From contig CAYIBP010000003.1 of the NCBI GenBank assembly GCA_964361705.1, positions 5,606-69,605 on the forward strand: a stretch of 64,000 nt of DNA, written 5' to 3'. The stretch is from an uncultured Candidatus Saccharibacteria bacterium. Lineage in GTDB: Bacteria; Patescibacteriota; Minisyncoccia; Phycocordibacterales; UBA9973. Positions 13,911 to 58,545 of the stretch are shown here, piece by piece (positions within the stretch are counted from its first letter, which is position 1; the number at the start of each line of letters is the position of its first letter). The translations under genes were made by a program, and so were the position numbers. A model generated the notes under the pieces. That model did not search any database. It was not told the origin of the DNA and saw only the letters and a program-made list of their open reading frames with translations.

Positions 13911-16071
13911 GTTACAAAATATTTGGATTCTATTGGATAGCTATTTCTTCATGCCATTCTTTAGCGCTCTAGCTCTAGTTTTTTTGTGTTTTTACATCGC
14001 TCCACTGGAGTTGTTTTATTTTAGTAAAGTATCATCCATCTACACAGCTATCATTTCCGCATTCATTGCTTTTTTTCTTTGGTTTAGAAGACTAGGAGAA
14101 GAAAGTAGAATAAAAAATCTTTTGACTGAATTAAATAAACATTTCTTTCTTTCAGGTTTAATAACCATAATTATCTTGAATCTCACGCCCTTTGGGAATC
14201 TCTCTTTTCCGACGTACATAAAATTAGTTTTAAACTTTGCGACATTTTTCAGCGGATTTATAACGATCTATGTCAATAAAAATTTATTAGTAAACATAGA
14301 ATCGGAAAGAAATGATGAAATACTTGTGGAGCAGGAGAAAATAAACGAATTCAGAAACAAATTTCCAAAAATAAATAAAATTCCATTATTTAGAAATGTT
14401 GCCAGATTTATTTACATAGAAAAATGGTGGTACTCTCTTTCTATAATCTTACTTTTGGTTATAGGTTTTGTGATAAGACTCTACAATCTTGGTGAACTGA
14501 GTCTATGGTGGGATGAACTCTTAACAGGAACTTACGTCACGAGAATTCTGGAAACAGGTTTACCAATATCACCGTCCGGTTTTGAATATTACTGGAGGGG
14601 AATATCATACCATTATCTTGTTTCTGGCTTTACATTTATTTTCGGAAACACTGAATTTTGGCTTAGATTCCCTAGTGTACTATTAGGAATTGGAACCATA
14701 ATACTATCTTTCTTGATAACGAAAAGAATAAACAAGATTCTAGCTCTTTTTATAGTAATTATTTTAACTTTTTCGATTTACAACGTAGAATATTCTCAAT
14801 TCGCTCGTTTCTATATAATGAACGCCTTTCTTTTTTTACTAAACATAGAATTCTTTTGGCGAGGATTCTTTGAGCAAAAAAAGTGGTTTAAGGTGCTCTC
14901 TATCATTACTTTCTTAATAATGATATTAACCGTACAGTTAGGATCAATATTTATTTCAGTAATATTTTATTACTTAATATATAAAATATCTTTAATAAAA
15001 ATTAAGAAATCAAGAATCAGAGACTTATTTAGTTTAAAATTATTTATACCTATAATGCTTTTTTTGAGTTTATATATAACTGGAAACCCTTTTGATTTGA
15101 TTGGTATCTATAAAGATCATCCTTATGAAGTGGATTTAATTAGTCAGGTAGATGGCAATGTAAGATACATTTTACCTAAAATACCCTACCCAGAATTTAA
15201 AAATATCGTATTACCATTTTTTAATGACTTTTACTGGCCAACTATTTTTTTCATCTTAGCATCAATTATTTCTTTATTTTTAATTTTTAACAAACTAAAA
15301 TTAAACAAAGAACTAGGTTACTCAGAATATATTCTGGGGATATCTTTTATATCACTAATACTCTTTGAGTTCGCTAATCCATTTTCAAAAGAACCTAGAC
15401 TATACCTAATGTTTGAACCTCTTTATATCATCCTATCAATGATGACTATTTTCATCATTGTAAAAGAAATCTTACAACTAAAGCATAAAAAAACATTGAT
15501 TATTCTGTCTTTCATTCTCCTTGCTTTATTTTTTAGTTCAAAACCATCCCTTTATGATGTGATGAATATTAGATACGGTGACAATGTGTCAAACGATCCA
15601 TTTAGAACTACTTGGGCTCAAGCGTATCGTTCCGATTCAAAAACCACGCTTGAATATTTAAAGAAAAATATAGAAGACGAAGACATTTGGATCAATACTC
15701 TTGAACCAGCATATTTTTATTTACAAAGAAATCCAGATTTTATTTTGAATCAAAATTACAAATGGAAAAACATGTGGCGAGAAGAAATTTTTACCGATAA
15801 AGATAAAAACTATATAGAAATAAGATATAACAGTATACTTATAAACACAATGGAAGACTTACAAAAAATCTTAAACAATAATACTAATAAAAATGTATGG
15901 CTCTTAGCAAACGGGCAAAACCTCGAAACATTATATACAAAACAATTAAATAAGGATTTTGTGGACTTTTTATCCGAAAATACAGAAAACGTTGTATATT
16001 CTTCTCCAGACGAAAGAAGCAAGCTTTTGCTTTTCCAAAAATTAAATCAATCCTTCTTGTTAAAGAAATAA
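13894..16071 (+). CDS. GT39/GT-C family glycosyltransferase (ArnT/PMT-like), second paralog
   Basis: 725 aa; at least 12 TM segments; LWWDELLTGTYVTRILETGLP loop motif; overlaps the upstream gene by 17 nt. Confidence 0.7.
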   Translation: MQSNNKLQNIWILLDSYFFMPFFSALALVFLCFYIAPLELFYFSKVSSIYTAIISAFIAFFLWFRRLGEESRIKNLLTELNKHFFLSGLITIIILNLTPFGNLSFPTYIKLVLNFATFFSGFITIYVNKNLLVNIESERNDEILVEQEKINEFRNKFPKINKIPLFRNVARFIYIEKWWYSLSIILLLVIGFVIRLYNLGELSLWWDELLTGTYVTRILETGLPISPSGFEYYWRGISYHYLVSGFTFIFGNTEFWLRFPSVLLGIGTIILSFLITKRINKILALFIVIILTFSIYNVEYSQFARFYIMNAFLFLLNIEFFWRGFFEQKKWFKVLSIITFLIMILTVQLGSIFISVIFYYLIYKISLIKIKKSRIRDLFSLKLFIPIMLFLSLYITGNPFDLIGIYKDHPYEVDLISQVDGNVRYILPKIPYPEFKNIVLPFFNDFYWPTIFFILASIISLFLIFNKLKLNKELGYSEYILGISFISLILFEFANPFSKEPRLYLMFEPLYIILSMMTIFIIVKEILQLKHKKTLIILSFILLALFFSSKPSLYDVMNIRYGDNVSNDPFRTTWAQAYRSDSKTTLEYLKKNIEDEDIWINTLEPAYFYLQRNPDFILNQNYKWKNMWREEIFTDKDKNYIEIRYNSILINTMEDLQKILNNNTNKNVWLLANGQNLETLYTKQLNKDFVDFLSENTENVVYSSPDERSKLLLFQKLNQSFLLKK

Positions 16072-16964
16072 AATATTCCTCCAATTGATGTCTGAATCAA
16101 CATTATAAAACGTGATAACAAAGAAATACTAAGAGATGCCTCTGCCGAAATACCAATGAAAGACAACAGAGATATCAAAGATAATTCATATACACCAATA
16201 GCATTCACAGAAATAGGTACGATACTTATTAATTGTATTACCAGATAAAAACCTGTAACTAACAAATAATCAGTGTTATATCCAAACATTAAGAGATAAA
16301 TCCATAGGCTTAGCGATCCAAGCAAGGGGTATATTATTGAAATTGACACAACTCTAAACCAATTTAAATTCATCTCTTTTATATGATTTTTAATTTTTAG
16401 AACAATTCCTTTCAATTTACTTGAAAAAAAGTAGATAATCAGAGCAAAAAGAAAAATAACAATAAATAAAAAGATAATTGAAATCTTTTTTACTTCTAAA
16501 TAAAAAAACGGCAAGATTTTATAAGACAGGAAAATTAAAAGAAGTAGTGTGCCAGCGATCCCCGACAATCTGTCTAATAAAACGGAGGTGAGGACCTTGG
16601 TCTTGCCCAATTCTGGTCCTAACTTTACAACCTTATAAGCATCACCTCCTATCGTGGAAGGTAAAAAATTACTGAAGAAATTACTCATCCAGTAGATTCT
16701 GAATAGTTTCCAAAACGGGTATTTTATCATCCCCTCCCATTTCAGAGTAGATAAAAATAATCCAGGTAAATATAAGAAAAAAGGAACAAGAATCAAATAA
16801 TTAACATTTGAAAACAATTTTATAGATTCTTCTAAGTCTATTTGACTTAAAACTAACCAAATAAACAGAAACATAAAACAAAGTTTTATAAAAAACCTGT
16901 GTTTAATTAGTAGTATTTTATATGGTTGTAAAAAATCAATTAATTTTTTCATATATTTTAGCAA
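16047..16964 (-). CDS. Flippase-like / lysylphosphatidylglycerol-synthase-TM-like (UPF0104) membrane protein
   Basis: 305 aa; polytopic; GGDAYKVVKLGPELGKTKVLTSVLLDRLSG resembles the UPF0104 domain. Confidence 0.55.
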   Translation of the reverse strand: MLKYMKKLIDFLQPYKILLIKHRFFIKLCFMFLFIWLVLSQIDLEESIKLFSNVNYLILVPFFLYLPGLFLSTLKWEGMIKYPFWKLFRIYWMSNFFSNFLPSTIGGDAYKVVKLGPELGKTKVLTSVLLDRLSGIAGTLLLLIFLSYKILPFFYLEVKKISIIFLFIVIFLFALIIYFFSSKLKGIVLKIKNHIKEMNLNWFRVVSISIIYPLLGSLSLWIYLLMFGYNTDYLLVTGFYLVIQLISIVPISVNAIGVYELSLISLLSFIGISAEASLSISLLSRFIMLIQTSIGGIFYFFNKKD

Positions 16965-17991
16965 GAGAAGTAATGTAATTATTTAAATCTTTACCTTTTA
17001 CATTATCCTTACCGTTGTGAATAAGTTTCAAATAAAGTTCTCCGTCAGATAGTAGGTATTTTATTTTGTTTGCTAAATCAGCAGAATTCTTAGATTGAAA
17101 GGTCAACACATTCCTTTTATCTTGTACCAAACTAGCCAAACTTTCAATATCAGAAACAATAACAGGCACACCAAACATCCAAGATTCATTTAGAACTATT
17201 GGATTTGCTTCACTTAGAGAAGAGATCACTAGCAAATCGATCTCGTTGTAAACATGCTCTACATCAGAAACGAAACCAAGAAATTTTATTCTGGAATCCA
17301 GATCCAGATCTCTTGATAAAGTTTTTAAGTTTAATAATTCTGGACCATCACCCGCAATAATCGCCTTATAATTAGTAGGTAAAAAAGACAAAGATTCTAT
17401 TAAGAATTTACATCCTTTTACTTCACTCAACCTACCGATAAAACCTATTGTATAATTGTCCTTTGGATAAAAATCAATATTAATAATATCAGAAGAGGCA
17501 GAGCACCTAACAAAATTATTCAACACATACAATTTATCTTTCTTGATTGATATATTTTTAAGTAAAAAATCTCTTATGTAGTCAGATACACAGATGACAC
17601 CGTTTATCCTTTTTTTACAGATTTTAAATAAGTTATTGTACAGACGATTGTTTATTAAAATATCTCCATGTTCATGGTGTATAAATTTTAAATCTCGAAA
17701 AATAAGAGATAAGATAATTCCAAAGTAAAACCCCTTACGATGATGAGTGTGTATAATATCTATCTTTTTGTTTTTAATTATAAAAAAAATATCTATGAGA
17801 GGAAAAAGATTAAATTTTGAATAGTTTTTCACTATTACATTATTCTTTTGTATTACTGGTTTATCAACAGGTTTGCGAATAAAATAATAAGTAAGTTGAA
17901 TATTGGGTATATTAAAATTCTTAATTAAAGAATCTACGATGGACTCTACGCCACCGAAACCATATTTATCAACTATATGTAAAACGTTCAT
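16936..17991 (-). CDS. GT4 (GT-B fold) glycosyltransferase
   Basis: 351 aa; C-terminal sugar-donor motif SLSEANPIVLNESWMFGVPVIVSD (E-X7-E type). Confidence 0.8.
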   Translation of the reverse strand: MNVLHIVDKYGFGGVESIVDSLIKNFNIPNIQLTYYFIRKPVDKPVIQKNNVIVKNYSKFNLFPLIDIFFIIKNKKIDIIHTHHRKGFYFGIILSLIFRDLKFIHHEHGDILINNRLYNNLFKICKKRINGVICVSDYIRDFLLKNISIKKDKLYVLNNFVRCSASSDIINIDFYPKDNYTIGFIGRLSEVKGCKFLIESLSFLPTNYKAIIAGDGPELLNLKTLSRDLDLDSRIKFLGFVSDVEHVYNEIDLLVISSLSEANPIVLNESWMFGVPVIVSDIESLASLVQDKRNVLTFQSKNSADLANKIKYLLSDGELYLKLIHNGKDNVKGKDLNNYITSLAKIYEKIN

Positions 17992-17994
17992 AAT

Positions 17995-19095
17995 TTATAG
18001 ATTTGAATATGCCACTAATAAATCATTATTTTCATAATTACTAATTATATTATTCCTCGTACTGATCACACCATCTAATAAAGCATTATTATCTCGTTCA
18101 AGTCTAGAAAGGATATTTTGTAAATCACCTTTGTTTTTATAAAACAAACCATTAAAATTGTCACGTAGCAACTCATGGTTACATTCAATATCATTAGCTA
18201 TCGTGATTTTATCCATAAGCAGATAGTGTATCATTTTCATACTAGGTTGTCTGCCATATATTCTAGGTAAAACGCCCGCTATAGATTTTTTGATCAAAAA
18301 ATTAACATGGGGTACTGATAATTTACCAGGCAAGAAAACTTTTGCATTTAATTCGAGTGTATTTATCAAATCATTGATATTTTCTGAAATCTTCCCAACA
18401 ATGACTAATTTAAACTCGCTTTTAACTTGTGAAAAAAGATTTAAGAAGTTTTCAATACCTTGGTATGATTCAGAATTTCCAACATAAATAAGATATTTTT
18501 CATTTTTTTTATTATCAATAATATAATCTTCAATCTTCAAATCTAATTTATCATAAAAAAGTACAGTTTTTTTATCTTTAAAAACTGGATCCTTTGAATA
18601 AATCTGCCAATTCAAAATTATTAAATCGCAATTTTGGATAATCTTTCTTTCTAAAAAAAGAATAAAACTCCTAAAGGGAACTTCTTTTCTGGAAATTTCT
18701 AGATTATCTATAATGCGATTATGTAAGTCATAGATTAATTTAACTTTTTTTGATACAAAAAAAGAAAGGATATATCCAATAAAAGCAGCCTCAAAATCTT
18801 CACAGTGAACAAAACTATACTGTCTGGATAATATCAAATACAATCCTTTACAAAAAATCAAAAAATCTAGAATTATTCGAGATAAATTTATTTTTCCAAC
18901 ACCTATCGTGGGTTTAAAAAAACTAATAGTCCTGTATAATCTTGTATTTTTTAGCTCAATATCTTTCCCAAGATTATAAGTAAGTAAATCAATTTCATAT
19001 TTTTCACTTAATTTGCTAACCATCGAATACACACGAAGAGAAGAACCTTTTTCTTCGTAAAATGGTGTTGTGGCAATTACCAATACCCTCTTCAT
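17995..19095 (-). CDS. GT4-like glycosyltransferase
   Basis: 366 aa with GT-B architecture; adjacent to the GT4 gene and 4 nt-coupled to galE. Confidence 0.6.
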   Translation of the reverse strand: MKRVLVIATTPFYEEKGSSLRVYSMVSKLSEKYEIDLLTYNLGKDIELKNTRLYRTISFFKPTIGVGKINLSRIILDFLIFCKGLYLILSRQYSFVHCEDFEAAFIGYILSFFVSKKVKLIYDLHNRIIDNLEISRKEVPFRSFILFLERKIIQNCDLIILNWQIYSKDPVFKDKKTVLFYDKLDLKIEDYIIDNKKNEKYLIYVGNSESYQGIENFLNLFSQVKSEFKLVIVGKISENINDLINTLELNAKVFLPGKLSVPHVNFLIKKSIAGVLPRIYGRQPSMKMIHYLLMDKITIANDIECNHELLRDNFNGLFYKNKGDLQNILSRLERDNNALLDGVISTRNNIISNYENNDLLVAYSNL

Positions 19096-20042
19096 CTTTT
19101 TTTATTGTATGCTTTTAGGGTGCTTTCGACCATTTCTAGCAAGCCGAATTTTGGTTGCCAGTTTAATATTTTTTTTGCTTTATCAAAGGATGCCACTACG
19201 CTGGTAAGATCGCCCAATCTTTTCTTTATAAACCTGTATTTTACTTTTTTACCAGAGACTTTTTCAAACATATTCATTATTTCTAAAACAGAATAACCTT
19301 TTTCACTTCCTAGATTAAAAACACCAGAACCTTTCAGATTCATGGCTTTAATATGCGCATCGGCTATATCGGATACATGCACATAATCCCTGACACCTGT
19401 GCCATCTACTGTATCGTAATCATTGCCAAATATTTCAAGTTGTTTTTTATTACCAAAAAGCACATCGGCTATAACATTAAAAATATTTCTTACATTTGGA
19501 CCTATATAGTTCAATCCTTCATAACCTGCTACATTGAAATATCTCAGGGCGACATATCTCATGCCAGACAGATCAGCATGCCATTTCAATAAATCTTCGC
19601 CCATAAGCTTTGTAAAACCATAAAAATTAGCGGGGTTGCATTCGTGTGCTTCATTTATTTTTTTCACCTTTGGTTCGCCATATACTGCCGCAGAAGAAGA
19701 GAAAATAAATTGTTTGATCTTTAGTCTTGGTGCAATCTCCAAGAGATTCATCATGCCTTTAATATTCTCATCATACAAATCAGGTCTTTCCATAGATTCA
19801 CCAACATCCTTTCTAGCAGCGAAATGCATCAGCACATCAAATGCTTTATTTTTTAAATTCTTTTCAAAAGATGTAAAATTCAAAATATTTACTTTGTGAA
19901 AAACGGCTCTAGAATCCACATTTTCCTTTCTACCCCTTGAAAGATCATCCACCACTGTGACAGAATAACCGGCATCCACGAGCTTTTTCACCACTACGCT
20001 ACCAATATATCCGGCTCCCCCTGTGACAAGTATTTTCTTCAT
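19092..20042 (-). CDS. galE: UDP-glucose/UDP-hexose 4-epimerase (NAD-dependent SDR)
   Basis: KILVTGGAGYIGS Rossmann motif and catalytic YGFTK (YxxxK); 316 aa. Confidence 0.85.
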   Translation of the reverse strand: MKKILVTGGAGYIGSVVVKKLVDAGYSVTVVDDLSRGRKENVDSRAVFHKVNILNFTSFEKNLKNKAFDVLMHFAARKDVGESMERPDLYDENIKGMMNLLEIAPRLKIKQFIFSSSAAVYGEPKVKKINEAHECNPANFYGFTKLMGEDLLKWHADLSGMRYVALRYFNVAGYEGLNYIGPNVRNIFNVIADVLFGNKKQLEIFGNDYDTVDGTGVRDYVHVSDIADAHIKAMNLKGSGVFNLGSEKGYSVLEIMNMFEKVSGKKVKYRFIKKRLGDLTSVVASFDKAKKILNWQPKFGLLEMVESTLKAYNKKR

Positions 20043-21088: not shown

Positions 21089-23056
21089 ATGAAAGAAAAA
21101 CATACAAAAAAGCCGATGAAGGTGTCGGGCATTATATCTGTTTCTTCAAAGGGTACTGGGTATGTCTCGGTAGAGGGTAAAGACAAAGACATAGAGATAG
21201 ATTTCGCTCGTTTGAATACTGCTCTCCATGGAGATACGGTAGAGATATGTATCCATTCTAAGGGCAAAGACAATACTAGGGGCGAAGTGATAAAAGTAAT
21301 TTCTCGCGCAAAGACAGGATTCTCTGGTGTTCTGCAAAGAGAAAAAGGCGTGTATTTTCTGAAACCTGATGACACAAAGATGTATGCCGACATATCAATA
21401 CCAGAAATGTTTTTAAATAAAGCAAAAGCTGGAGAAAAAGTGTATGCAGAAATAATGTCTTGGCAAGATTCTTCCAGATTACCCGAAGGCAAAGTATTAA
21501 AAATACTCGGCAAGCCGGGCAACAACGATACCGAAATGCACGCTATCGCCATAGAAAAAGGTTTCGATAACGATATGCCAGAGAGAGTCAAAGAAGAAGC
21601 AAAGAAAATAAAAACTCTCGGAATGCAAACAAAAGATTACGCAGACAGAAAAGACTTCAGAAAGATTCTGACATTTACTATCGATCCCGAAGATGCAAAA
21701 GATTTTGATGATGCGATATCCATTAGAGAGATAAAAGTAGGCGACCCTGCTCTACCCGAAGGAGGCTATGAGATAGGGGTACACATAGCAGATGTAACAC
21801 ATTTCGTACGAGAAGGTGGCACGATGGATGAAGAAGCCAAATCACGAGGTACTTCTGTGTATTTAGTGGACAGAACAATACCGATGTTACCAGAAGAGAT
21901 CTCCAACGATCTGTGTTCCCTGCTACCACACAAAGACAGGTTTGCAATGAGCGCAGTTTTTATGATGAACAAAAACGCAGAAGTAAAAGGAGAATGGTTC
22001 GGCCGCACGGTAATACATTCGCAAAAGAGATTTACATATGAGGAGGCGGAAAAATCTATAAATGATCAAAACGCACATCTGCACAGGGAACTACATATAC
22101 TAAACACTCTTGCAAAGAAATTAACCGAGGAGAGATTTAGATTAGGCGCGATGTCCCTAGAACAAGAAGAAGTGAAATTCGTACTAGATAAAAACGGTAA
22201 ACCTTTAAAGGTTATAAAAAAAATACGAGGAGATTCTAATAAACTCATCGAGGAATTTATGTTGCTCGCCAACAAAAAAGTCGCGGAATTATTTTCTGCC
22301 AAGGTAGATAAAACAGAAAAAGACAATGGGGTATTTATATACCGAATACACGATAGACCAGAGAAAGAAAAGGTTATTAATCTAGCTTTCTTTTTACGCA
22401 GTCTCGGACATAAAATCTCAATAATAAATGATCAAATTCCAAAGCAAGAGATAAACAAAATTTTACAAAAAATATCCGGGCAAAACGGAGAAGATACGAT
22501 TCGAAAGATGATCATAAGGTCTATGGCAAAAGCAATATATTCCACAAAAAATATTGGGCATTATGGTCTGGCATTTGATTATTACGCTCACTTTACTTCA
22601 CCTATCAGACGATATCCGGATATGGTAGCGCACAGACTCCTTGCTGATTTTCTGAAAACAGAAAGCAAACATCAGAAAGCAAACAAAGAAAAAGTAGCAG
22701 AGTTTCAGAAAATAGCAATGCGATCTTCTGAGCGCGAGAAATACGCTGCCGACGCAGAAAGAGCCTCGGTAAAATACAAACAAGTGGAATATATGTCTCT
22801 TAGAATTGGCAAAACTTTCTCCGGTACGATCAGCGGTGTCACCGAATGGGGAATGTTTGTAGAAGAACACGAAACTAAATGCGAAGGTTTGGTGCGTCTG
22901 CGCGAGATGAAAGATGATTTTTATATTTTCAATGAAAAAAAGATGGAGCTGGTAGGAGAAAAACACAAAAAGAAATACAGTCTGGGAGACAAAGTAAAAA
23001 TAAAAGTGAAAGACGCAAACCTAGAAAGAAAAACAATAGACTACGAACTCGTATGA
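21089..23056 (+). CDS. rnr: Ribonuclease R (RNB-family 3'-5' exoribonuclease with a C-terminal S1 domain)
   Basis: 655 aa with an RNB catalytic region (DPEDAKDFDDAIS, HIADVTHFV) and a C-terminal S1-like segment. Confidence 0.9.
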   Translation: MKEKHTKKPMKVSGIISVSSKGTGYVSVEGKDKDIEIDFARLNTALHGDTVEICIHSKGKDNTRGEVIKVISRAKTGFSGVLQREKGVYFLKPDDTKMYADISIPEMFLNKAKAGEKVYAEIMSWQDSSRLPEGKVLKILGKPGNNDTEMHAIAIEKGFDNDMPERVKEEAKKIKTLGMQTKDYADRKDFRKILTFTIDPEDAKDFDDAISIREIKVGDPALPEGGYEIGVHIADVTHFVREGGTMDEEAKSRGTSVYLVDRTIPMLPEEISNDLCSLLPHKDRFAMSAVFMMNKNAEVKGEWFGRTVIHSQKRFTYEEAEKSINDQNAHLHRELHILNTLAKKLTEERFRLGAMSLEQEEVKFVLDKNGKPLKVIKKIRGDSNKLIEEFMLLANKKVAELFSAKVDKTEKDNGVFIYRIHDRPEKEKVINLAFFLRSLGHKISIINDQIPKQEINKILQKISGQNGEDTIRKMIIRSMAKAIYSTKNIGHYGLAFDYYAHFTSPIRRYPDMVAHRLLADFLKTESKHQKANKEKVAEFQKIAMRSSEREKYAADAERASVKYKQVEYMSLRIGKTFSGTISGVTEWGMFVEEHETKCEGLVRLREMKDDFYIFNEKKMELVGEKHKKKYSLGDKVKIKVKDANLERKTIDYELV

Positions 23057-24924
23057 GGCATAATTTTAAACAAAAATTAAAAGTTGTTTTTTGGTTTATT
23101 ATCGCTATATTTCTCGGCATATCTGTCACCTCCTTTGCTTTTGAAAAACTATCTAAAGAAAAAGAATACCAATACAAAGAAACACAAGCTACAGCACTAG
23201 AGTCCATAGAGAAAGATACAACTCCAAAATATTTTTATGTTACAAAAGATGCGAGCTCAAAACCAAAAGTCGGAGCGAAAGCTTATCTTGTGGGAGATTT
23301 GGATACAGGTGAAATCATTCTTGAAGAAAATAAAGACGCAGAATTCCCCATAGCTTCAGTTTCAAAGCTCATGACAGCAACCCTTGCCAAAGAACTCATG
23401 TCTCCAGAGGATTTGGCAATCGTATCTAAAAAAGCCCTAAGCACACAAGGTACAAATGGAGATTTAAAAATTGGAGAAAAAATAAAAATAGAAGACCTTG
23501 TATATCCTCTACTTCTAGAATCCAGTAATGATGCCGCAGAGGTAATAGCTGAATATTTTGAAAGAGAATATTTTTTGAAAAAGATGAATCAATTGGCAGA
23601 GAAATTAAATCTTACCAAGACGGCATTTGACGATCCGAGCGGGCTTTCTGCAAAAAACAGATCCACAGTGTACGAGATATTTAAACTTACAGGATATATA
23701 AAAGAAAAAAATCCGGAAATACTTGATCTGACAAAAAACAAAAGTTTCAAAAACAAAAATCATCACTGGTTTAGCAACAATCAATTTTTAAGCGAAGATG
23801 GATACAATGGAGGAAAAAGCGGATACACAGACCCGGCAATGCAGACAGTAGTTTCCACTTTTGCGCTTCCTCTTTCGGAAACAGGAACACGCAATATAGC
23901 TATCACGTTACTTCAAAGCAAAGACCGTTTTAAAGATGTACAAAAAATATTAGAATATTTAAATCAAAATACATATTATGGAGGCAAAGCTGACGCAGAG
24001 AGCGCTTGGGTCAAACTACGCACAGATGTAGCTCCAGTTTACGAGAGGGATTTCGTATCGCTCACCTTCGGAGGAGACATGATGCTTGACCGCGGAGTAG
24101 AAACTTCCGTAAACAAAAATTTCGACGGAAATTTTTCCGCATTGTTTGAAAATTTGGGTATTTTGAAAAAAACAGACATATCATTTGCAAACTTGGAAGG
24201 CCCTGCATCAGACATAGGCAAAGACAGACAAAACTTATATTCGTTTAGAATGCACCCTTCCACTATACCCGCTTTGAAAGGCGCAGGGATCTCGGTGGTG
24301 TCAGTAGCGAACAACCATGTAGGAGATTGGGGACGAGATGCATATCTGGACACATTAGAAAGATTAAAAGAAAATGAAATATTTTACACTGGAGGCGGTG
24401 TGAACAGAATCGAAGCAGAACAACCAATCATAATAGAAAAATACGGGATCAAGATAGGATTTCTTGCCTTTTCAGATGTTGGACCAGATTGGATGCAAGC
24501 CGACGAAGACAAAGCAGGCCTCTTGATAGCACGCGATCCTCGTTTTGAAGAAATAATAACTAACGCCTCAAAACAAGTAGACCACCTAGTCGTCTCATTT
24601 CACTTTGGAGACGAATACAAGACAATACACAATGCTCGCCAAGAAGACCTGGCGCATAAAGCCATAGACTCCGGAGCAAAGATAGTGATAGGACATCACC
24701 CGCATGTAATACAAGACACAGAAATTTATAAAAATGGATTTATAGCCTATTCGCTGGGCAATTTTATATTTGACCAAAGCTGGTCCAAAGACACTATGAG
24801 AGGCATGCTCTTAGAAATAAAACTAGGAAGAGATGGAAATATGACTATAAAGAAAAACATCTCAAACTTGAGCAACTTTTTCCAACCAGAAAAAACGATT
24901 GCAGGTAAAGAGGAAAAATTATAA
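23053..24924 (+). CDS. Fusion of a D-alanyl-D-alanine carboxypeptidase (S11/PBP5-like) and a CapA/PgsA-type metallophosphoesterase
   Basis: The N-terminal half has SVSKLMT (SxxK), ESSND (SxN) and GKSGYT (KTG-like). The C-terminal half has FANLEGP, SVANNHVGDWG and GHHPHV CapA motifs. ATGA overlap with rnr. Confidence 0.8.
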   Translation: MRHNFKQKLKVVFWFIIAIFLGISVTSFAFEKLSKEKEYQYKETQATALESIEKDTTPKYFYVTKDASSKPKVGAKAYLVGDLDTGEIILEENKDAEFPIASVSKLMTATLAKELMSPEDLAIVSKKALSTQGTNGDLKIGEKIKIEDLVYPLLLESSNDAAEVIAEYFEREYFLKKMNQLAEKLNLTKTAFDDPSGLSAKNRSTVYEIFKLTGYIKEKNPEILDLTKNKSFKNKNHHWFSNNQFLSEDGYNGGKSGYTDPAMQTVVSTFALPLSETGTRNIAITLLQSKDRFKDVQKILEYLNQNTYYGGKADAESAWVKLRTDVAPVYERDFVSLTFGGDMMLDRGVETSVNKNFDGNFSALFENLGILKKTDISFANLEGPASDIGKDRQNLYSFRMHPSTIPALKGAGISVVSVANNHVGDWGRDAYLDTLERLKENEIFYTGGGVNRIEAEQPIIIEKYGIKIGFLAFSDVGPDWMQADEDKAGLLIARDPRFEEIITNASKQVDHLVVSFHFGDEYKTIHNARQEDLAHKAIDSGAKIVIGHHPHVIQDTEIYKNGFIAYSLGNFIFDQSWSKDTMRGMLLEIKLGRDGNMTIKKNISNLSNFFQPEKTIAGKEEKL

Positions 24925-25752: not shown

Positions 25753-28008
25753 TTATTTCGCGATAGCTTGTGCTTCGTTGAGTTTGACGGAGAGGAGTTT
25801 TGACGCGCCATCGGCGCCTATGGTCACACCGTAGAGTATACCTGCGCGAGACATAGTCTCTCTGTTGTGGGTTACCACTACGAGTTGTGAATGTTTTGAA
25901 AGTTTTTCAAGCATATCTCCGTACTTTCTGGAATTTGCTTCATCTAGAGCAGCATCAGTTTCGTCCAATACTAAAAAGGGTGGAGGATTTACTTGCGACA
26001 TTGCAAAAAGTAATGCTATAGAAGTGAGAGATCTTTCTCCTCCAGAGAGAGCATTTAATTCTTTGACTTTTTTCTGAGGTAAAGATACATCAATATCTAG
26101 GCCCTGTTCAAAAACTATTTCCTCCTCATCTTTTTCTGTTTCTTCATCTTCCTCCGGATTATTCTTCCTTGATTTTTTATTTTCAACCAAAAGAGACAAG
26201 TGCGCGGACCCGCCACCAAACATCAGATTGAAGAAATTATTGAATTCTACATTTATCTTTTTTACACCTTCTTTGAATTCTGTATCTATTTTTTCTTTAA
26301 GCTCCGCCATCAGCGTGCGGATAGATTCTATACTTTTTGCCAAATCTTCTATCTCCTTTGCTAAAAACGCATCTCTGCTTGTAACTTCTTCATATTCTTT
26401 TACAACTTCCAAACCCCTATCTAGCCCAGTGTCTTCAAGCCTTATTTTTATCTTTTCTATCTTTCTCTTCAATTCTTCATGTTCCATCTTATTTGATGTA
26501 TAAGAAACATTAAAATCTCTGTAAAGCAGAATATCTCCACCTATCAACACTGAACCTTCTTTTATCTCGTTATCAAAAGATTCAATTTGTCTGCGCAGGT
26601 TGTCTTCTTTGATTCGCACCATATCGAGCGATGACATGAGTTCTTGTTTTTTCATTCTTATATTGAATCTTTCTTTTTCTTTCAAGTGCAAAGATTCGCT
26701 TTCTCTGCGAGCTTCTTCTTTGAGCATCAATATCTTTTCAAAGATGTCTTTTTCTTCTTTTCTTATATTATCTAATTCCACTTCTATTTGTTTTTTTGTA
26801 TTTTTGAAATTTTCAAGCTCGTCTAAATTCTGATCTTCTCTATCACTCACAGAAATCTCAATTTTAAATTTCTTCAAAATCTCGTTCACAGAAGACAAAT
26901 AAGACTTTATTTCAGACAAGTCATCTTTTAATATCGCGTCATCTATAATGCTTTCGATTTCTTGCAAGAAAACAGACACTCTTTTTACTGGCACTGCGGT
27001 ATCTCTGTATTCTATGGACCTGTGTCGTGAGCTTACTTCTATCATAGCCTCTATGCGGCCAAGCTTTCTTTCAATCTCACTTTTAGCGCCACTCATTTCA
27101 AAACGCTTTTTCTCGAGAATTTTAATTTCTTTTTCTTTTTCACTTTCTTCTTTTTCTCTACCATCGCGTGATTCCATTTCTTTGAGTTCTTTTTCTGTAT
27201 TTTCAAGTTCCCAAGAAATCCTTTTTTTGTCAGAGCTGACGATAGTTTTTTCATTTTCAATATAAATACTTTCTTTTTTCAAATATTCCTGATAAAGCAA
27301 AGAAAGTTCAAAACGCATTTCTTTTGCTTTCTCGAGCCTTTCCATCTGCTTTTTCAAGAAATTAAGGTGCGGCGCATTTTCCCTGCGAAGCATGGTAACT
27401 TCTTTTATATTTATTTCCGTTCTTTCCAATTTTTTCGCGGATTCTTTTATCCTATACTGATATATTTTCAAACCCAAAGCTTCTTCTACCATTTCGCGTC
27501 TATCTTTTGGGTTTGCATTCAATATTCTGTCCGCTTCACCCTGTGAAATTATATGATGCTGTGAAGCGCCGATATTCACCGAGGACAGGAGGTTGTGAAT
27601 ATCTTTCAGCCTTGTCTCACTACCATTCAATATGTATTTATTTAATCCATCCGCGTAAACCTCACGAGAGATGGAAACAACATCGTAATTGAGATTTATA
27701 TTTTCACCTGCTTCATTTGAAAGTTTAAAAACATGGTCGGAATTGTCAAAATAAATGGCCACGCTAGCGCGTGTACCCTTAGACAAATTTTTAGAACCCT
27801 TGAATATCATATCCTCTCCTTTTGATCCACGCATAGATTTCATGGATTGTTCTCCAAGTACAAAACGAATAGCCTCAACCACATTTGATTTACCGGAACC
27901 ATTAGGACCTACAATGGAAACTATTGGATTTTGAAATTCTAAAACAGTTTTTTTAGAAAAAGATTTAAAACCATTTATTTCAAGACTCTTTAGGCGCGTC
28001 GAAAGCAT
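25753..28008 (-). CDS. smc: SMC-family ATPase, short hinge-poor form (mini-SMC)
   Basis: N-terminus FKSFSKKTVLEFQNPIVSIVGPNGSGKSNVVEAIRFVLGEQS (SMC Walker A). C-terminus LSGGERSLTSIALLFAM...FLVLDETDAALD (signature and Walker B). Only 751 aa; rnc-smc synteny. Confidence 0.8.
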   Translation of the reverse strand: MLSTRLKSLEINGFKSFSKKTVLEFQNPIVSIVGPNGSGKSNVVEAIRFVLGEQSMKSMRGSKGEDMIFKGSKNLSKGTRASVAIYFDNSDHVFKLSNEAGENINLNYDVVSISREVYADGLNKYILNGSETRLKDIHNLLSSVNIGASQHHIISQGEADRILNANPKDRREMVEEALGLKIYQYRIKESAKKLERTEINIKEVTMLRRENAPHLNFLKKQMERLEKAKEMRFELSLLYQEYLKKESIYIENEKTIVSSDKKRISWELENTEKELKEMESRDGREKEESEKEKEIKILEKKRFEMSGAKSEIERKLGRIEAMIEVSSRHRSIEYRDTAVPVKRVSVFLQEIESIIDDAILKDDLSEIKSYLSSVNEILKKFKIEISVSDREDQNLDELENFKNTKKQIEVELDNIRKEEKDIFEKILMLKEEARRESESLHLKEKERFNIRMKKQELMSSLDMVRIKEDNLRRQIESFDNEIKEGSVLIGGDILLYRDFNVSYTSNKMEHEELKRKIEKIKIRLEDTGLDRGLEVVKEYEEVTSRDAFLAKEIEDLAKSIESIRTLMAELKEKIDTEFKEGVKKINVEFNNFFNLMFGGGSAHLSLLVENKKSRKNNPEEDEETEKDEEEIVFEQGLDIDVSLPQKKVKELNALSGGERSLTSIALLFAMSQVNPPPFLVLDETDAALDEANSRKYGDMLEKLSKHSQLVVVTHNRETMSRAGILYGVTIGADGASKLLSVKLNEAQAIAK

Positions 28009-28017: not shown

Positions 28018-28713
28018 TTAATCAGACCAATTTTTTATTCTTAATGCGGATTCGGCGGCTTTTTGTTCCGCTTCTTGTTTTGATTTACCTTTGCCTTCTG
28101 CCACTAATTCAGAACTGAAAAATACCCCAACAGTAAAGTGTTTGTCGTGATCAGGGCCTGACTCGCTTAGAATCTTGTAAGCAGGGGTTACTCCTATGTG
28201 CTCTTGCGCCTTTTCTTGGATCAGACTTTTTGAATCACGCCAGAGTTTTTTCTTTACTATTTCATCAGTGTATGGCAAGAGAGTATTTGTAACGAATTTA
28301 TTTGCCACATCATAACCCTGATCAAGATACACCGCCCCTAAATAAGCCTCGTATGTATTCGCCAATATATATTGCCTAGCTTTACCGGTATCTTTGGCTT
28401 CGCCTTTAGATAGAAGTAGATAATCGTTCATGCCAATTTTTAAAGCAACTTCGGAAATAGTAATAGCATTTACAAGAGCCGACCTGATAGCGGTAAGTTC
28501 ACCTTCGGTGTAACCTTTATATTTTTTATAAAGAAAGTCAGTCACGATGAGCTCGAGCACAGCATCTCCTAGAAATTCAAGCCGTTCGTTATGTAAAAGA
28601 TTTGAGCCTGGATTTTCGTTTATATAAGAACGGTGAACAAATGCCTGTTTGAGCAGAATTTTATCCTTAAAAGTTATTTTAGTGGTTTTTTCAAAATCTG
28701 AGAATTGGATCAT
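28018..28713 (-). CDS. rnc: Ribonuclease III
   Basis: ERLEFLGDAVL signature; C-terminal dsRBD; 231 aa. Confidence 0.9.
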   Translation of the reverse strand: MIQFSDFEKTTKITFKDKILLKQAFVHRSYINENPGSNLLHNERLEFLGDAVLELIVTDFLYKKYKGYTEGELTAIRSALVNAITISEVALKIGMNDYLLLSKGEAKDTGKARQYILANTYEAYLGAVYLDQGYDVANKFVTNTLLPYTDEIVKKKLWRDSKSLIQEKAQEHIGVTPAYKILSESGPDHDKHFTVGVFFSSELVAEGKGKSKQEAEQKAAESALRIKNWSD

Positions 28714-28735: not shown

Positions 28736-29662
28736 TTAACTTATTTTCTTGCTTATAATATCTATCGCCTTGGTAATAAGCGGAATAATGTCATTGTAAA
28801 TGCGAAGCTGTGGGATTTCAGAAAGCTGAAACCATCTCGCATCATCAAGACCACCAGACTTTTCTAACACAAGTTCTTTGTACTCGCTCTCTGCTAAAAA
28901 ATAAACCACTTTTTTCAAAGTCTTGCCATTTTCCGGATGAGTTGCAACATATTCATTCACGCCTATTTTTTCTTTGATTTCTACATCAAGACCTATTTCT
29001 TCTTTTATTTCCCTTTTTGTGCCTGTCTCTATTTCTTCTCCTGACTCTACTTTACCTTTTGATAAAGTCCAATACCCAAAAACATCGTGTACAAAAGCAA
29101 ATAAAACATCACTGTCCTTCTTTGCATAAACTAATGCTCCACCCAGATTCTCAACGGGAAGTTTGCTGATATCTACAGACTCTTCTTTCTTTTTCGTTTT
29201 GCTTATCTGTTCTTTGCCCGGCTCGCCTATCTCTTTGTACACAGCACCCAACACGCCATTGATAAACTTGCTTGAATTTTCTCCACCGAAAGTTTTTGCA
29301 AGCTCTATGGCTTCGTTTATAGCAACTTTCGGAGGCACTTCATTTCTATCGCCGAAAAGGAGTTCGGTGAGACCAATCCTTAATATATTTCTATCAACAA
29401 CCGAGATTTTCTCAAGAGGCCAGTCTGGAGCTGCCTTTTTGATTATCTCATCAATAATGCTAGTTTTTTTTAATACAAGTTCAGCGAGAATAAAAACAAA
29501 CGGATCATCTTCAAAACTGGGAGTGAATTCTTTCAGGTTTCTTTTTAGAGCATTTTTCACTTTCTCTTCATCCCAAGAAACACCACCTTCATGAGTAGAC
29601 ATAAAATCCCATTCAAAGAGGGTTTGGAGAACTATTGATCTTGAAAGGTGCCTGTTTGCCAT
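28736..29662 (-). CDS. nusB: NusB antitermination factor fused to a C-terminal Nudix hydrolase domain
   Basis: The N-terminal 140 aa are NusB-like (RSIVLQTLFEWDF...VDRNILRIGLTELLF...INEAIELAKTFG). The C-terminus carries a Nudix box GYWTLSKGKVESGEEIETGTKREIKEEIG. Confidence 0.8.
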   Translation of the reverse strand: MANRHLSRSIVLQTLFEWDFMSTHEGGVSWDEEKVKNALKRNLKEFTPSFEDDPFVFILAELVLKKTSIIDEIIKKAAPDWPLEKISVVDRNILRIGLTELLFGDRNEVPPKVAINEAIELAKTFGGENSSKFINGVLGAVYKEIGEPGKEQISKTKKKEESVDISKLPVENLGGALVYAKKDSDVLFAFVHDVFGYWTLSKGKVESGEEIETGTKREIKEEIGLDVEIKEKIGVNEYVATHPENGKTLKKVVYFLAESEYKELVLEKSGGLDDARWFQLSEIPQLRIYNDIIPLITKAIDIISKKIS

Positions 29663-45310: not shown

Positions 45311-46060
45311 TCAGCTTGCGACGGGCTCTGCAGCAATCTCTTCGGGCCTGCAAGCAACAATTGCCACGAATAACTTCTTCGTTGGCGAAGAAAGTGGTAA
45401 AATTTCGCTTGTGATTTTGCCCAAATGAGAGCGTAGCAATGTAAAATTGCTAGCTCCAGTATCTGTCCCAAAAAATGCCAGAGGAGACCCATTCAGAGCC
45501 TCCTTAAAATCATTGACATCAAAAGACGCGATATTTCGAGCCGTAGTTGCTCCAGCAAGGCAAAATCCTAAACCGCGCCTGCGAAAAGATTTGGCAATTT
45601 CACCTGCCGTTCTCCCTTCGCCACTGACAGCCACAACCGCAAGTTTTTCGTCGTCCAGAAGAAAAGCCGGATTTTCCCTGAAGAGCTTCAGGGCATTGAG
45701 AGCTTGCGCGTAATCGTCTTTGATTTCGGCCTCAGCCAAAATCGACGCGGCCTGCGTCCCCGTGACGGCTTGAAGGTTGAGAGGTTGCCTAGCGCGCGGA
45801 TCAAAAGCGGTCCTAGTGCCAATAGGAACCGGCGAAAGTTCTTCGTCCGGCAACTTTGTTGACGAAAATTCTTCTTGTTCTTGAGATAACAATCCGTGGA
45901 TAAAAGCCTCGAACTTTGCCTTGAACGCATAAGGACTGCTGATAATCCAATCGTTCAGGGTTTCGAATTCTTCCTCCGAGAGTTCCATCATCTTAAGCCT
46001 CTCAGCGAAGCTTCTAATAATATCTCTTCTGAGATCCCAAATGATCAGTTTTTTTAGCAT
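45311..46060 (-). CDS. Hypothetical protein encoded in a compositionally foreign GC-rich segment
   Basis: 249 aa from the ATG at 46060, which sits 11 nt after a perfect AAGGAG Shine-Dalgarno. The GTG start at 46099 in the ORF track is less likely. Local GC is about 55-60% against about 30% around it. No confident domain assignment. A possible Rossmann-like segment (LAVVAVSGEGRTAGEIAKSF...GFCLAGATTARNIA) is a weak call. Confidence 0.6.
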   Translation of the reverse strand: MLKKLIIWDLRRDIIRSFAERLKMMELSEEEFETLNDWIISSPYAFKAKFEAFIHGLLSQEQEEFSSTKLPDEELSPVPIGTRTAFDPRARQPLNLQAVTGTQAASILAEAEIKDDYAQALNALKLFRENPAFLLDDEKLAVVAVSGEGRTAGEIAKSFRRRGLGFCLAGATTARNIASFDVNDFKEALNGSPLAFFGTDTGASNFTLLRSHLGKITSEILPLSSPTKKLFVAIVACRPEEIAAEPVAS

Positions 46061-46116
46061 GGCTCTTTTCTCCTTAGAGTTTAGCCATTTTACTAACACT
46101 ACGCGGGATTGGGTGC

Positions 46117-46170
46117 GTAGTCATAGCTCCAAAAACCCAATATTTATTGGGTACTTAAAGCTATGACTAC
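46117..46170. repeat. Nested inverted repeat upstream of the GC-rich gene
   Basis: A 12-bp perfect IR GTAGTCATAGCT / AGCTATGACTAC flanks a 30-nt spacer that contains the palindrome CCCAATAttTATTGGG. Confidence 0.6.
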
Positions 46171-46248
46171 TTGAGCAAGTAATTTTTAAAGAGCTTTATA
46201 CTTTTATATTATAGCATACTGGACACCTATGTGTCAAACAGACCTGAC

Positions 46249-46273
46249 ATGATGTCAAAGAGACTCTTTGACA
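46249..46273. repeat. Perfect 25-nt palindrome at the 3' end of ligA
   Basis: GATGTCAAAGAG-a-CTCTTTGACATC, followed on the plus strand by TAGAGCATTTTTAAAAATT. Confidence 0.55.
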
Positions 46274-46274
46274 T

Positions 46275-48805
<2,531 letters not shown>

Positions 48806-48809
48806 TTTA

Positions 48810-49421
48810 TTATTCTATCCAGTTATATAAATACTCTGTAAGTACGATGCTGTGTGTACCTGACTGTTGACTCCAAGACACCCTTGAATACACTTTTACT
48901 CTATCCACAACTGAAGTATCCGCCCATGTAGTACGAATAAATCCAGAATCAACGCCATTGGCAGGATTCGTGCTGTAATTGCCATTATTAAAATACAAAT
49001 GACAATTGCTTGGATTTTCAGCACACTTAAACACAGAGATCGCATTGGTCTGGTTTACTATCGCAATATTGAAACCACAAAGTCCAGTTTCATTTGAGCT
49101 TGGGGGCTGACTTCCACTGCATTTGGTATTTGAAATACCTGTAAAATTAAACCTAAAATCATTCCAATCTGTTGGATTGCTGGAAAATAGCATATAAGCG
49201 TTTCTTTTGTTCAAGAAGTATTCTATACCTTCTTGAGCCAAATATGTGGCAGTAATTTTTTTCTTTGCGTATTCTATATCAGAAAGTCCATTGCCCAACA
49301 CAGACATCAAAGACACAATGGATAAAGAAAATATCGCAACAGCAACAAGCGTTTCAATCAAAGTAAAACCTTGTTTGGTATTTTTGATATTTATATTTTT
49401 TTGCGTAGAAAAATTATTCAT
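48810..49421 (-). CDS. Minor pilin/pseudopilin (GspI/PilV-like)
   Basis: QGFTLIETLVAVAIFSLSIVSLM prepilin N-terminus. Confidence 0.7.
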   Translation of the reverse strand: MNNFSTQKNINIKNTKQGFTLIETLVAVAIFSLSIVSLMSVLGNGLSDIEYAKKKITATYLAQEGIEYFLNKRNAYMLFSSNPTDWNDFRFNFTGISNTKCSGSQPPSSNETGLCGFNIAIVNQTNAISVFKCAENPSNCHLYFNNGNYSTNPANGVDSGFIRTTWADTSVVDRVKVYSRVSWSQQSGTHSIVLTEYLYNWIE

Positions 49422-49427
49422 GGTTTT

Positions 49428-50039
49428 TTATTGTATATCTACTAACCGTTGTGATATGGTGGTTTGCAAGGCAAAAGGCGTCTTAATATTTTTATAAAAA
49501 ATATCTCCCATGAGTCTGATCCTCACCATGGGTTGCGCATCGTCTCCAGCTTCGGCGCCACTGACTATGAATTTAGATCCACTACCTATCAACACATCGC
49601 TTGTATTTAATGTTGCCCACGTAATTCCTCCATCTGTTGACTTCTCTATGTTAGGAGGAACGATCTTGTATATCCATTGATTACTAGTGTCATCATACAC
49701 AAATTCTTCCGGTTCAAATACAATCTGCGCACTTCCATTCAAACAACTCACAGGATCTTCACTTGCGGCTTCTCCAGCAAGACCACAATGATAGAAGAAT
49801 CCTGTTCTTAAGTTCCTAGACATATCTTCCATTATAAAACTCAAACTATCCATAATAGAACGCATATCTTCCGATTTCCTATGAACTAAATTTGCATTTA
49901 GAAGCGAATCCATGCCCACCATAGTAACCACCAGAAAAATAGAAACGGCAATCATGGTTTCTATAATAGTATATCCGCTAGTTTTTAGTTTCTTTCTTTT
50001 TTCTTTCATATTTTGTTTTTTAAAAAATATTTTCATCAC
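49428..50039 (-). CDS. Minor pilin/pseudopilin (GspJ/PilW-like)
   Basis: SGYTIIETMIAVSIFLVVTMV prepilin N-terminus. Confidence 0.7.
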   Translation of the reverse strand: MMKIFFKKQNMKEKRKKLKTSGYTIIETMIAVSIFLVVTMVGMDSLLNANLVHRKSEDMRSIMDSLSFIMEDMSRNLRTGFFYHCGLAGEAASEDPVSCLNGSAQIVFEPEEFVYDDTSNQWIYKIVPPNIEKSTDGGITWATLNTSDVLIGSGSKFIVSGAEAGDDAQPMVRIRLMGDIFYKNIKTPFALQTTISQRLVDIQ

Positions 50040-50052
50040 AATAAAATATAAT

Positions 50053-50709
50053 TTAATCTATATCTATCCTGCCGGAAGAATACACCTTTATCGTGGAGCC
50101 AAGAGCGTTTGGCGATACCACATCTATGGCTACATATTCTATCTTACACGAAGGGCCAAGTGAAGGAGTGGCTTTTATATTGGCAAGCGAACTCGGTCTT
50201 TTAAAAGTAATGGTTATATTGTTTGTCGTAGCCGGACATCCCGTGCCAGAAATTCTAAGAGAAGAAATAAAATTACCTTTTGTGATGTCTATTTTATCAA
50301 GACATTCTTGATTGCAAGTGGAATTACCTATAGTGGGACCAGTATAAGAACCGTTGTTATCAAGATCCACAAAATATACAAATCTTTTGTTGTTATTATT
50401 ATCGAGATTGAAACGCAAACCATAAGAAGGTTTCCATGTTGTCCCTGCGGCCAGGTTTAGCTTGCCAGACATCGAAGATCTCTGTGCTTCTACGATTTGG
50501 AGAGCAATATCATTTGCTAATACCTTGACATCTACCCTGCCCTGAAACCCTCTGTAATCAAAAAGCACCACAGAAGTCATAACAGAAAAAATACTGAGCA
50601 CTATTATGAGTTCGACATAGGTCATGCCTGCTTTGAGGTTTTTAAATTTCCCAAGATGACAGCAACCTTGCCATTTGTTTCTTGTGTTTTTTATAGATGA
50701 TGTTTCCAT
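50053..50709 (-). CDS. Minor pilin/pseudopilin (GspH/FimT-like)
   Basis: KAGMTYVELIIVLSIFSVMTSVVL prepilin signal with E+5. Confidence 0.7.
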   Translation of the reverse strand: METSSIKNTRNKWQGCCHLGKFKNLKAGMTYVELIIVLSIFSVMTSVVLFDYRGFQGRVDVKVLANDIALQIVEAQRSSMSGKLNLAAGTTWKPSYGLRFNLDNNNNKRFVYFVDLDNNGSYTGPTIGNSTCNQECLDKIDITKGNFISSLRISGTGCPATTNNITITFKRPSSLANIKATPSLGPSCKIEYVAIDVVSPNALGSTIKVYSSGRIDID

Positions 50710-50734
50710 ATACTGAAACTCTTTTCAATCAAAA

Positions 50735-51535
50735 TTAAAAGCCAGATGGCAAAGCACTAAATATTCCAGACTGAAGCATAAAAGCAATAAAAGCTCCAAG
50801 GGCTAAAAACGGCGCAAACGGTAACTCACTTTTTGCTTTGTATTTTTTAGAAAATAAAAGTAGTAAAATCCCAACGATCGCTCCTGACCAGAATGCCATA
50901 ACTGCGCCAGTGGCTATCTTTGCAAAGCCAATGACCCAACCTATACCGATGGCAAGCTTTGCATCTCCTAACCCCATCCATTCACCGCGTGACAGGAGCC
51001 AGAGTAAAGCAAAAGGCAACGCAAGCACAACTCCAGAAATAAACTCTGTGAGAGGCGGTATGTTCGGATCGAGGTGATATCCAGAAAAGAAAAACAGGCC
51101 CAAGAAAGCAAAAACCCCAAAGAACAAAACCAAGGAGTCGGGGATGATCTTGTGTCTTAAATCATACACCGCCATTACAAGAAGCAAAGAAAACATCGTC
51201 ACATAATATGCGTAAGATACAGAAAAATCCAAGGTACTCAAATAAAAAGTATCCTGAAACTTTAGAAACACTAAAGCAAACATGCCTCCAGTGACAAATT
51301 CAACTAAAGGATATTGCCAAGAAATTCGTGTCTTGCAATGTCTGCACCTCCCTTTCAAAAACAGAAAACTAAGCACGGGAATAAGCTCACGCCATCCGAG
51401 AATATGCCTGCAAGAAAGACAACCGCTCCGCCCGCCAAAAGTGCAATTAGTGTTGAACCTTAGTATCACCACATTCAAAAAGCTTCCAATAATCAATCCA
51501 AGGCCGAAAAAAATAATCGTGAGTAATAAAGTCAT
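50735..51535 (-). CDS. pilD: Prepilin peptidase (A24 family)
   Basis: N-terminal tetra-Cys (CLSCRH...CRHCKTRISWQYPLVE) and a polytopic membrane core; 266 aa. Confidence 0.8.
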   Translation of the reverse strand: MTLLLTIIFFGLGLIIGSFLNVVILRFNTNCTFGGRSGCLSCRHILGWRELIPVLSFLFLKGRCRHCKTRISWQYPLVEFVTGGMFALVFLKFQDTFYLSTLDFSVSYAYYVTMFSLLLVMAVYDLRHKIIPDSLVLFFGVFAFLGLFFFSGYHLDPNIPPLTEFISGVVLALPFALLWLLSRGEWMGLGDAKLAIGIGWVIGFAKIATGAVMAFWSGAIVGILLLLFSKKYKAKSELPFAPFLALGAFIAFMLQSGIFSALPSGF

Positions 51536-58539: not shown

Positions 58540-58545
58540 GGAAAA

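Follow-up and report, generated by a model that had tools for sequence, protein, structure and literature searches.

A hinge-less short Smc protein of the Parcubacteria group and the helical hairpin at its arm tip

Can a bacterial Smc protein do without a hinge, and if it can, what would pair its two arms? The hinge is regarded as a defining feature of SMC proteins, and it is debated whether it is a dimeriser only or also a DNA gate and a DNA-binding site. The question is raised by one gene in a 64,000-nucleotide stretch of contig CAYIBP010000003.1 (assembly GCA_964361705.1), which we refer to as the window: an open reading frame (ORF) at 25753..28008, minus strand, runs from ATG to stop and encodes 751 amino acids (aa) plus the stop, and it was assigned to Smc by SMC_N, TIGR02168 (SMC_prok_B) and a match to structure 5XG3. 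The original prediction for this gene, made from the sequence alone, had described a miniaturised Smc with both head halves and no recognisable hinge, and we confirmed this observation. We call the protein mini-Smc and consider that it is probably the housekeeping Smc of the Parcubacteria group (candidate phyla radiation (CPR)/Patescibacteria), with the hinge replaced by a minimal tip dimerisation module.

SMC_hinge (PF06470) gave no Pfam match at E<=1 over the whole protein and no match at E<=10 when the isolated centre (residues 306-411) was searched with the hinge profile, and PF06470 was among the precomputed domains of none of the 120 nearest homologues. The protein contains no Cys and has no Gly from residue 318 to 484, in agreement with the earlier statement that the centre is devoid of Gly-rich hinge motifs. 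The centre is all-helical in AlphaFold models and superposes on long antiparallel coiled coils. A hinge remnant in the centre was ruled out by the null results with the hinge profile together with the all-helical models.

The two ends of mini-Smc form an Smc head (all coordinates within the gene are on the minus strand). The N-terminal head half (residues 1-175, 27484..28008) was aligned to residues 3-200 of B. subtilis Smc, and its motifs, read from the sequence, are the Walker A GPNGSGKS (residues 34-41, 27886-27909), the KSMR arginine-finger region (residues 57-60) and the Q-loop SQG (residues 155-157), with motif columns that are 80-100% conserved across the family. The C-terminal head half (residues 546-751, 25756..26373), aligned to the C half of the B. 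subtilis Smc head, is near-invariant across the family and carries the signature LSGGE (residues 654-658, 26035-26049, likewise read from the sequence), the Walker B FLVLDE with its glutamate retained (residues 678-683, 25960-25977), the D-loop DAALD and the H-loop THN. All canonical head motifs that had been named before (FKSF, GPNGSGKSN, AIRFVLGEQS, LSGGERSLTSIALLFAM and LVLDETDAALD) were found again. Between arm and head, the head-proximal C strand and joint region (residues 481-545, 26374..26568) shows a column conservation of 0.85-0.89 and carries the conserved EIKEG...IKIRLEDTGL, which aligns with IKLAIEELGTVNL of the B. subtilis Smc head construct. One part of the C head is variable: an acidic insertion at residues 611-632 (KKSRKNNPEEDEETEKDEEEIV, 26113..26178) lies between two strands, is absent from B. 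subtilis Smc (a gap stands opposite it in the 5XG3 alignment), is poorly conserved with insertions and deletions, and has a predicted local distance difference test score (pLDDT) below 50 in AlphaFold. Judged by its intact ATPase motifs, the head of mini-Smc is of a catalytically complete Smc type.

Profile comparisons agreed with an Smc identity. SMC_N (Pfam) matched at 2.2e-53 and spans residues 6-736, and the NCBIfam bacterial Smc equivalog TIGR02168 was the best model by far with 493 bits; its cut-off of 567 was not reached, a shortfall that fits the missing hinge and arm segments. Rad50 models scored 44-62 bits (cut-offs 700-1087), the SbcC model 32 bits (cut-off 478) and the RecN model TIGR00634 40 bits (cut-off 408). 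The closest solved structure was the B. subtilis Smc head 5XG3 (2e-77, aligned to residues 6-213 and 514-747), and the head identity to B. subtilis Smc was 41% over 411 positions. Most members of the family are named 'AAA family ATPase' and not Smc at NCBI because their scores fall below the cut-off of the Smc model, and annotation-based surveys of gene content may score Parcubacteria as lacking Smc.

In place of the hinge stands a tip module (residues 329-393, 26830..27024) made up of a linker (329-340), helix A (341-359), a turn (360-363), helix B (364-386) and a second linker (387-393), that is, a discrete 46-residue helix-turn-helix (341-386) bounded by hydrophilic, indel-prone linkers (326-340 and 387-400). 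The segment 340-380, which the original prediction had singled out as free of hinge motifs, is indeed free of them, yet it is not featureless, as the helical hairpin is conserved in pattern. Among 225 family members the tip between conserved anchors (query residues 322 and 398) measures 32 to 108 aa and is hypervariable in letters and in length, although the pattern persists. In helix B, large hydrophobic residues are conserved at positions 364, 367, 370, 371, 374, 377, 378 and 381, forming a 3-3-1 stripe broader than the a/d seam in a coiled coil of two strands; conserved hydrophobic positions amount to 0.35 in the helical tip vs 0.17 in the adjacent C arm, which has plain 7-4-3 heptad spacing. 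Moreover, when the best 40-residue windows were compared, that of the tip surpassed those of both arms in hydrophobicity in 101 of 147 helical-tip sequences (Wilcoxon p 1.5e-12). This pattern would fit the burial of additional surface, for which a four-helix bundle of two hairpins is the simplest arrangement.

Two variants of the helical tip were noticed in passing. In P0043 (805 aa) the helix B segment is tandemly duplicated within the tip (...DNIAEVKIILLRIKDILKRF... then ...DNIAEVKIILLRIRNILKEF...), a duplication which shows that the tip tolerates large rearrangements. A subset of homologues carries an insert of about 15-20 aa with the conserved ISSGPRxxGSLSQPDH after helix B (query residues ~381-386), at the main indel hot spot of the family.

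The tip position is occupied differently in some syntenic orthologues. In the shortest family members, the ~65-residue segment of the query is replaced by ~30-40 residues containing ...SGKCPLCGSEIKE..., a CxxC sequence of the zinc-hook kind. A CxxC was found at the apex in 6 of the 120 nearest matches, where the two Cys are the only ones of each protein, while 84 of the 120 are free of cysteine; at the same place it was found in 6 of 150 divergent 50%-identity representatives (CPVCGQ, CRYCGQ, CRTCKQ, CGYCGQ, CIYCAQ and CAACGQ), so that hook forms come to 12 of 269 database homologues in total, and most of these hook proteins contain no Cys beyond the pair of the hook. SG[RK]CP[LTMV]CG is carried by 22 of the 80 closest species genomes. 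Hook-bearing examples include P0046 (L004:10001-12148), the proteins P0050, P0079, P0144, P0189, P0192, P0195, P0206 and P0249, and the loci L014, L018, L036, L037 and L052. The gene of P0046 lies in the same locus as that of the window (pheS-pheT-gyrB-thrS-rpmF-nusB/Nudix-rnc-smc-PBP-RNase R) and is therefore its positional orthologue.

The relationship of these segments to the Rad50 hook became visible when they were pooled. The Pfam model Rad50_zn_hook had no match on the full-length hook variants, and single hook segments stayed below threshold: PF04423 was matched at E 0.01, and the Rad50 hook of P. furiosus (1L8D) at E 0.014 in an alignment of 85 residues that pairs GKCPlCGsE with GKCPvCGrE. 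When 24 of the segments were combined in a profile, its top match in PDB was 1L8D (E=8.5e-5), followed by 6ZFF (1.6e-3), and PF04423 was the Pfam family matched most often, by 15 of the 24 segments (best 3e-4, all below the gathering score). In distance trees (neighbour-joining, built without the tip and without support values), hook forms occur at about five places on the tree of representatives, and hook and helical forms are interleaved among close relatives. Tip type is partly phylogenetic, as the nearest neighbour by head domain shares it in 67-83% of cases; in a partition test, sorting by tip type was weak in every partition and strongest in the C arm that flanks the tip. The arms of hook forms are as long as those of helical forms (277-280 and 258-260 aa), and the hook as an alternative occupant on unchanged arms argues that this position holds a distal dimerisation function. 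The original prediction had also stated that the protein must dimerise or fold back differently; the CxxC of the positional orthologues supports a different dimerisation, and for the helical tip of mini-Smc itself we infer the mode of pairing.

How much of the arm has been lost? B. subtilis Smc has 1186 aa, and relative to this length mini-Smc is 435 aa shorter, close to the deficit of about 430 aa given before. The N-terminal coiled-coil strand covers residues 176-328 (27025..27483) with a break at 282-289, AlphaFold helices being placed at 181-281 and 290-328, and the distal C-terminal strand covers residues 394-480 (26569..26829), with an AlphaFold helix at 394-498 and heptad a/d spacing. 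A full-length model (mean pLDDT 70) and a model of the centre only (residues 255-465, pLDDT 85) agree on helices 181-281, 290-328/335, 341-359, 364-386/387 and 391/394-498, and the helices 507-526 and 529-597 of the joint region run into the C head. The 5XG3 alignment provides a register mark, with B. subtilis 219 facing 975 where query 232 faces 519; from this mark the query has 129 + 157 residues to the apex and B. subtilis 281 + 305 to the hinge. The estimated loss is therefore ~150 residues per coiled-coil strand plus ~170 of hinge, which accounts for the difference of 435 aa and bears out the claim that the arms are about half as long as usual.

What is left is an antiparallel coiled coil with an arm estimated at ~150-190 aa per strand, depending on where the end of the arm is set. 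Its strand lengths are tightly fixed, with standard deviations of 5.6 (Walker A to residue 322) and 9 aa in the 225 family members. Previous work found that the arm lengths of functional and natural Smc proteins fall into discrete modes of 163, 238, 341, 423 and 515 aa, the B. subtilis arm having 344 aa (~340) per strand (Burmann et al. 2017, PMC5344682). With ~160-190 aa the arm of mini-Smc lies near the shortest of these modes. That survey used hinge alignments as seeds (PMC5344682), so a hinge-less family was undetectable by it.

The short form is common. The identical protein was found on 8 contigs from separate groundwater assemblies, and the 120 nearest database proteins have 705-805 aa, are 60-81% identical and belong to the Parcubacteria group (Nomurabacteria, Paceibacterota, Minisyncoccia). 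In a HMMER scan of 1.84 billion cluster representatives, of which the 150 best 50%-identity clusters were considered, the proteins had ~690-800 aa down to 40% identity, save a few fragments. In a scan with one genome per species, a relative turned up in at least 587 species genomes, and the 80 best species-genome matches all cover the whole query at short length. The short architecture is common to all 269 homologues retrieved, and it is old and lineage-wide in the Parcubacteria group.

A hinge supplied by another gene was considered as well. A split gene, or a hinge encoded nearby, was ruled out by the neighbours, rnc and a hydrolase-like ORF, and by the continuity of the protein. Both head halves are joined by a continuous coiled coil in one ORF, so no second gene supplies the missing part, and the same arrangement was seen in the 269 homologues and in at least 587 species genomes. 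Neither of the two outcomes that had been named as refuting the original prediction, a match of the hinge profile to the centre or a second gene for the missing portion, was therefore observed.

From these results we propose that the lineage lost the hinge and ~150 residues of each arm strand, which would have left the catalytically complete head and the adjoining joint, plus a coiled coil, estimated at ~25-28 nm, that ends in the 46-residue helical hairpin. Two hairpins would pack as a four-helix bundle and so join two arms at their tips, the hairpin taking the job of the hinge in canonical Smc or of the zinc hook in Rad50; in the hook orthologues the protomers would be joined at the tips via Zn2+. 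ATP-driven head engagement and hydrolysis would then act on DNA as in Smc-ScpAB. The architecture and its conservation, the lack of a hinge, the intact ATPase motifs, the CxxC at the same position in syntenic orthologues and the equal arms of both forms are observations; beyond them we infer tip-to-tip dimerisation of the helical form, its four-helix-bundle geometry, the chromosome-organising function and a partnership with a kleisin, the last of which is assumed. Engineered proteins are consistent with such a design: B. subtilis cells in which the Smc hinge was replaced by the P. furiosus Rad50 hook grew normally, and shortened B. subtilis Smc arms work in specific length windows (PMC5344682). 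The hook orthologues suggest that the hinge mainly serves to pair two arms.

Several observations weigh against this proposal. The hydrophobicity excess of the tip is modest, the confidence of the full-length AlphaFold model is only moderate (pLDDT 70), and in AlphaFold, which was used for monomer models only, the tip simply extends the hairpin. ScpA and ScpB (PF02616, PF04079) had no match in 20 mid-sized ORFs of the window and were not found within ~10 kb beyond each of its ends. Nor did either appear in the smc neighbourhoods of 80 related genomes (10 kb around the gene, 1.4 Mb), in a search by phmmer and an N-terminal motif regular expression whose phmmer queries were B. subtilis sequences with low sensitivity for divergent CPR proteins. 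The scpA/scpB search proposed with the original prediction thus covered local stretches and found neither gene. In addition, a second, canonical smc may be present elsewhere in these genomes.

The hairpin could also end bare and take no part in dimerisation, pairing being left to the ATP-dependent heads and perhaps a kleisin, so that the complex would be an open two-armed clamp. The plain extended hairpin of the AlphaFold monomer, which shows no globular fold, would suit such a clamp, as would the hypervariability of the tip in length and sequence, and the authors who described a hinge-less SMC commit themselves to no mechanism for it (Sussfeld et al., PMC12153180). Nevertheless, the orthologues place a CxxC intermolecular dimeriser exactly at this position with arm lengths unchanged, and the hydrophobic stripe has remained conserved and unusually wide despite the drift of the sequence. 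Distal joining of the arms is, to our knowledge, common to all characterised SMC, Rad50, MukB and RecN proteins, which we also count against a bare tip, and we regard such an end as unlikely.

It is considerably less probable that mini-Smc is not a chromosomal condensin but a sensor of the Lamassu LmuB type, or another paralogue that stands beside a canonical Smc elsewhere. LmuB has ~650 aa, arms of ~20 nm, a hook in many homologues and a Walker B that is generally changed from E to Q (PMC10586767). The size, the short arms and the CPxCG hook of the relatives resemble LmuB, with the PADLOC LmuB model the query reached 76 bits and P0046 102 bits, and a paralogue is conceivable as long as the evidence is drawn from smc loci. 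On the other hand, the Smc model gave 493 bits against these 76, the Walker B glutamate is intact where LmuB generally has Q, nothing resembling LmuA or LmuC was seen among the neighbours, the housekeeping neighbourhood including rnc-smc is conserved across the loci examined, and relatives occur in at least 587 species genomes, a spread that does not resemble the patchiness of a defence island. The unusual length and a TIGR02168 score under the equivalog cut-off might have indicated an artefact of assembly or annotation, or else a gene that is decaying or split; this reading is refuted by the identical sequence on 8 contigs from separate assemblies, by hundreds of homologues that share the architecture with near-invariant catalytic residues and by flanking genes that are not SMC fragments.

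The gene order is that of a housekeeping locus. The smc gene starts 9 nucleotides downstream of rnc (RNase III; 28018..28713, minus strand; Ribonucleas_3_3 (Pfam) at 2.3e-36 plus dsrm) on the same strand, so the rnc-smc order known from Bacillus is preserved, as had been predicted. The same order is common to related loci L001-L006, and in 76 of the 80 loci from the closest species genomes an RNase III ORF lies within the flanking sequence that was retrieved. On its other side the gene is flanked by a convergent hydrolase-like ORF, and further neighbours are nusB-Nudix and PBP. The 308-aa product of 28736-29662 (minus strand) joins a NusB domain to a NUDIX hydrolase domain at its C terminus, and the fusion is also present at the equal position in related locus L004, with 312 aa. 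A 623-aa protein at 23053-24924 (plus strand) combines Peptidase_S11 (D-Ala-D-Ala carboxypeptidase) with PGA_cap (poly-gamma-glutamate capsule synthesis-type) and is kept beside smc in related loci.

Further away, positions ~14000-20000 of the window have a low GC content (0.28-0.31 vs ~0.37-0.39 elsewhere) and encode a glycosyltransferase, an epimerase and LPG_synthase_TM, a stretch that resembles a surface-polysaccharide island. A large type IV pilus cluster on the minus strand at ~46000-64000 comprises PilM, PilO, two T2SSE ATPases, T2SSF and a prepilin peptidase, together with several N_methyl pilins and a 1085-aa beta-helix protein.

We take the family to be a second hinge-less Smc lineage, present in at least 587 species genomes, in which the new element is a hook-or-hairpin tip cassette on arms of fixed length. 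A broader statement, for which the chances appear to us evenly balanced, is that the chromosomal Smc of a whole radiation is without a hinge and carries an interchangeable hairpin or hook cassette on fixed arms, with repeated mutual replacement among close relatives. If so, nature would already have run the Smc(Zh) experiment, the DNA binding of the hinge or a DNA gate would be dispensable, and distal dimerisation with tuned arm length would suffice. Proteins of 700-750 aa would then also be, among natural SMC motors, the smallest at hand for structural and single-molecule studies. In any case the family offers compact proteins for studies of mechanism, and with Smc heads, joint and arm lengths kept and the hinge exchanged for hairpin or hook it forms a natural experiment that speaks for the view, taken from engineered B. 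subtilis Smc, of the hinge as a dimeriser only.

When compared with known systems, mini-Smc shares with Smc-ScpAB of B. subtilis the bipartite head with every ATPase motif, the conserved joint and the rnc-smc order, whereas it has no hinge, is ~150 aa shorter per strand and has no ScpA or ScpB that was found locally. With Lamassu LmuB it has in common a similar size, a short coiled coil and a weak-to-moderate PADLOC match, but its heads are far closer to Smc, its synteny is housekeeping and its distribution is lineage-wide. The SG[RK]CPxCG(R/S)E of the hook orthologues resembles the KGKCPVCGRE of P. furiosus Rad50; the protein of the window has no Cys, the heads are of the Smc type instead of the Rad50/SbcC type, and no gene for an Mre11/SbcD-type nuclease lies beside smc in L001-L006.

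In the literature we found no report of a Patescibacteria Smc that lacks the hinge or bears a hook, and none of zinc hooks in natural Smc orthologues; the only natural precedent we found for a hinge-less SMC is a Tara Oceans cluster that branches within marine Actinobacteria and has no CXXC (Sussfeld et al. 2025, PMC12153180). Those authors interpret the cluster as divergent Smc instead of Rad50 and present it as possibly new biology (PMC12153180). As described, it shares with mini-Smc the SMC-type head, the antiparallel coiled coil and the lack of hinge and CXXC; it is actinobacterial, whereas the named members of our family are all Parcubacteria/Patescibacteria, and Sussfeld et al. report neither zinc-hook variants nor an analysis of the tip. 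Close counterparts in design are the engineered B. subtilis Smc constructs Smc(Zh) and Mini-Smc (Burmann et al. 2017, PMC5344682), which, like the mini-Smc family, combine Smc heads with shortened arms and a non-hinge dimeriser. These were made in the laboratory, whereas the Parcubacteria family is natural and ancient; the protein of the window bears a Cys-free hairpin and not a hook, and its natural hook-bearing orthologues have the same design as Smc(Zh).

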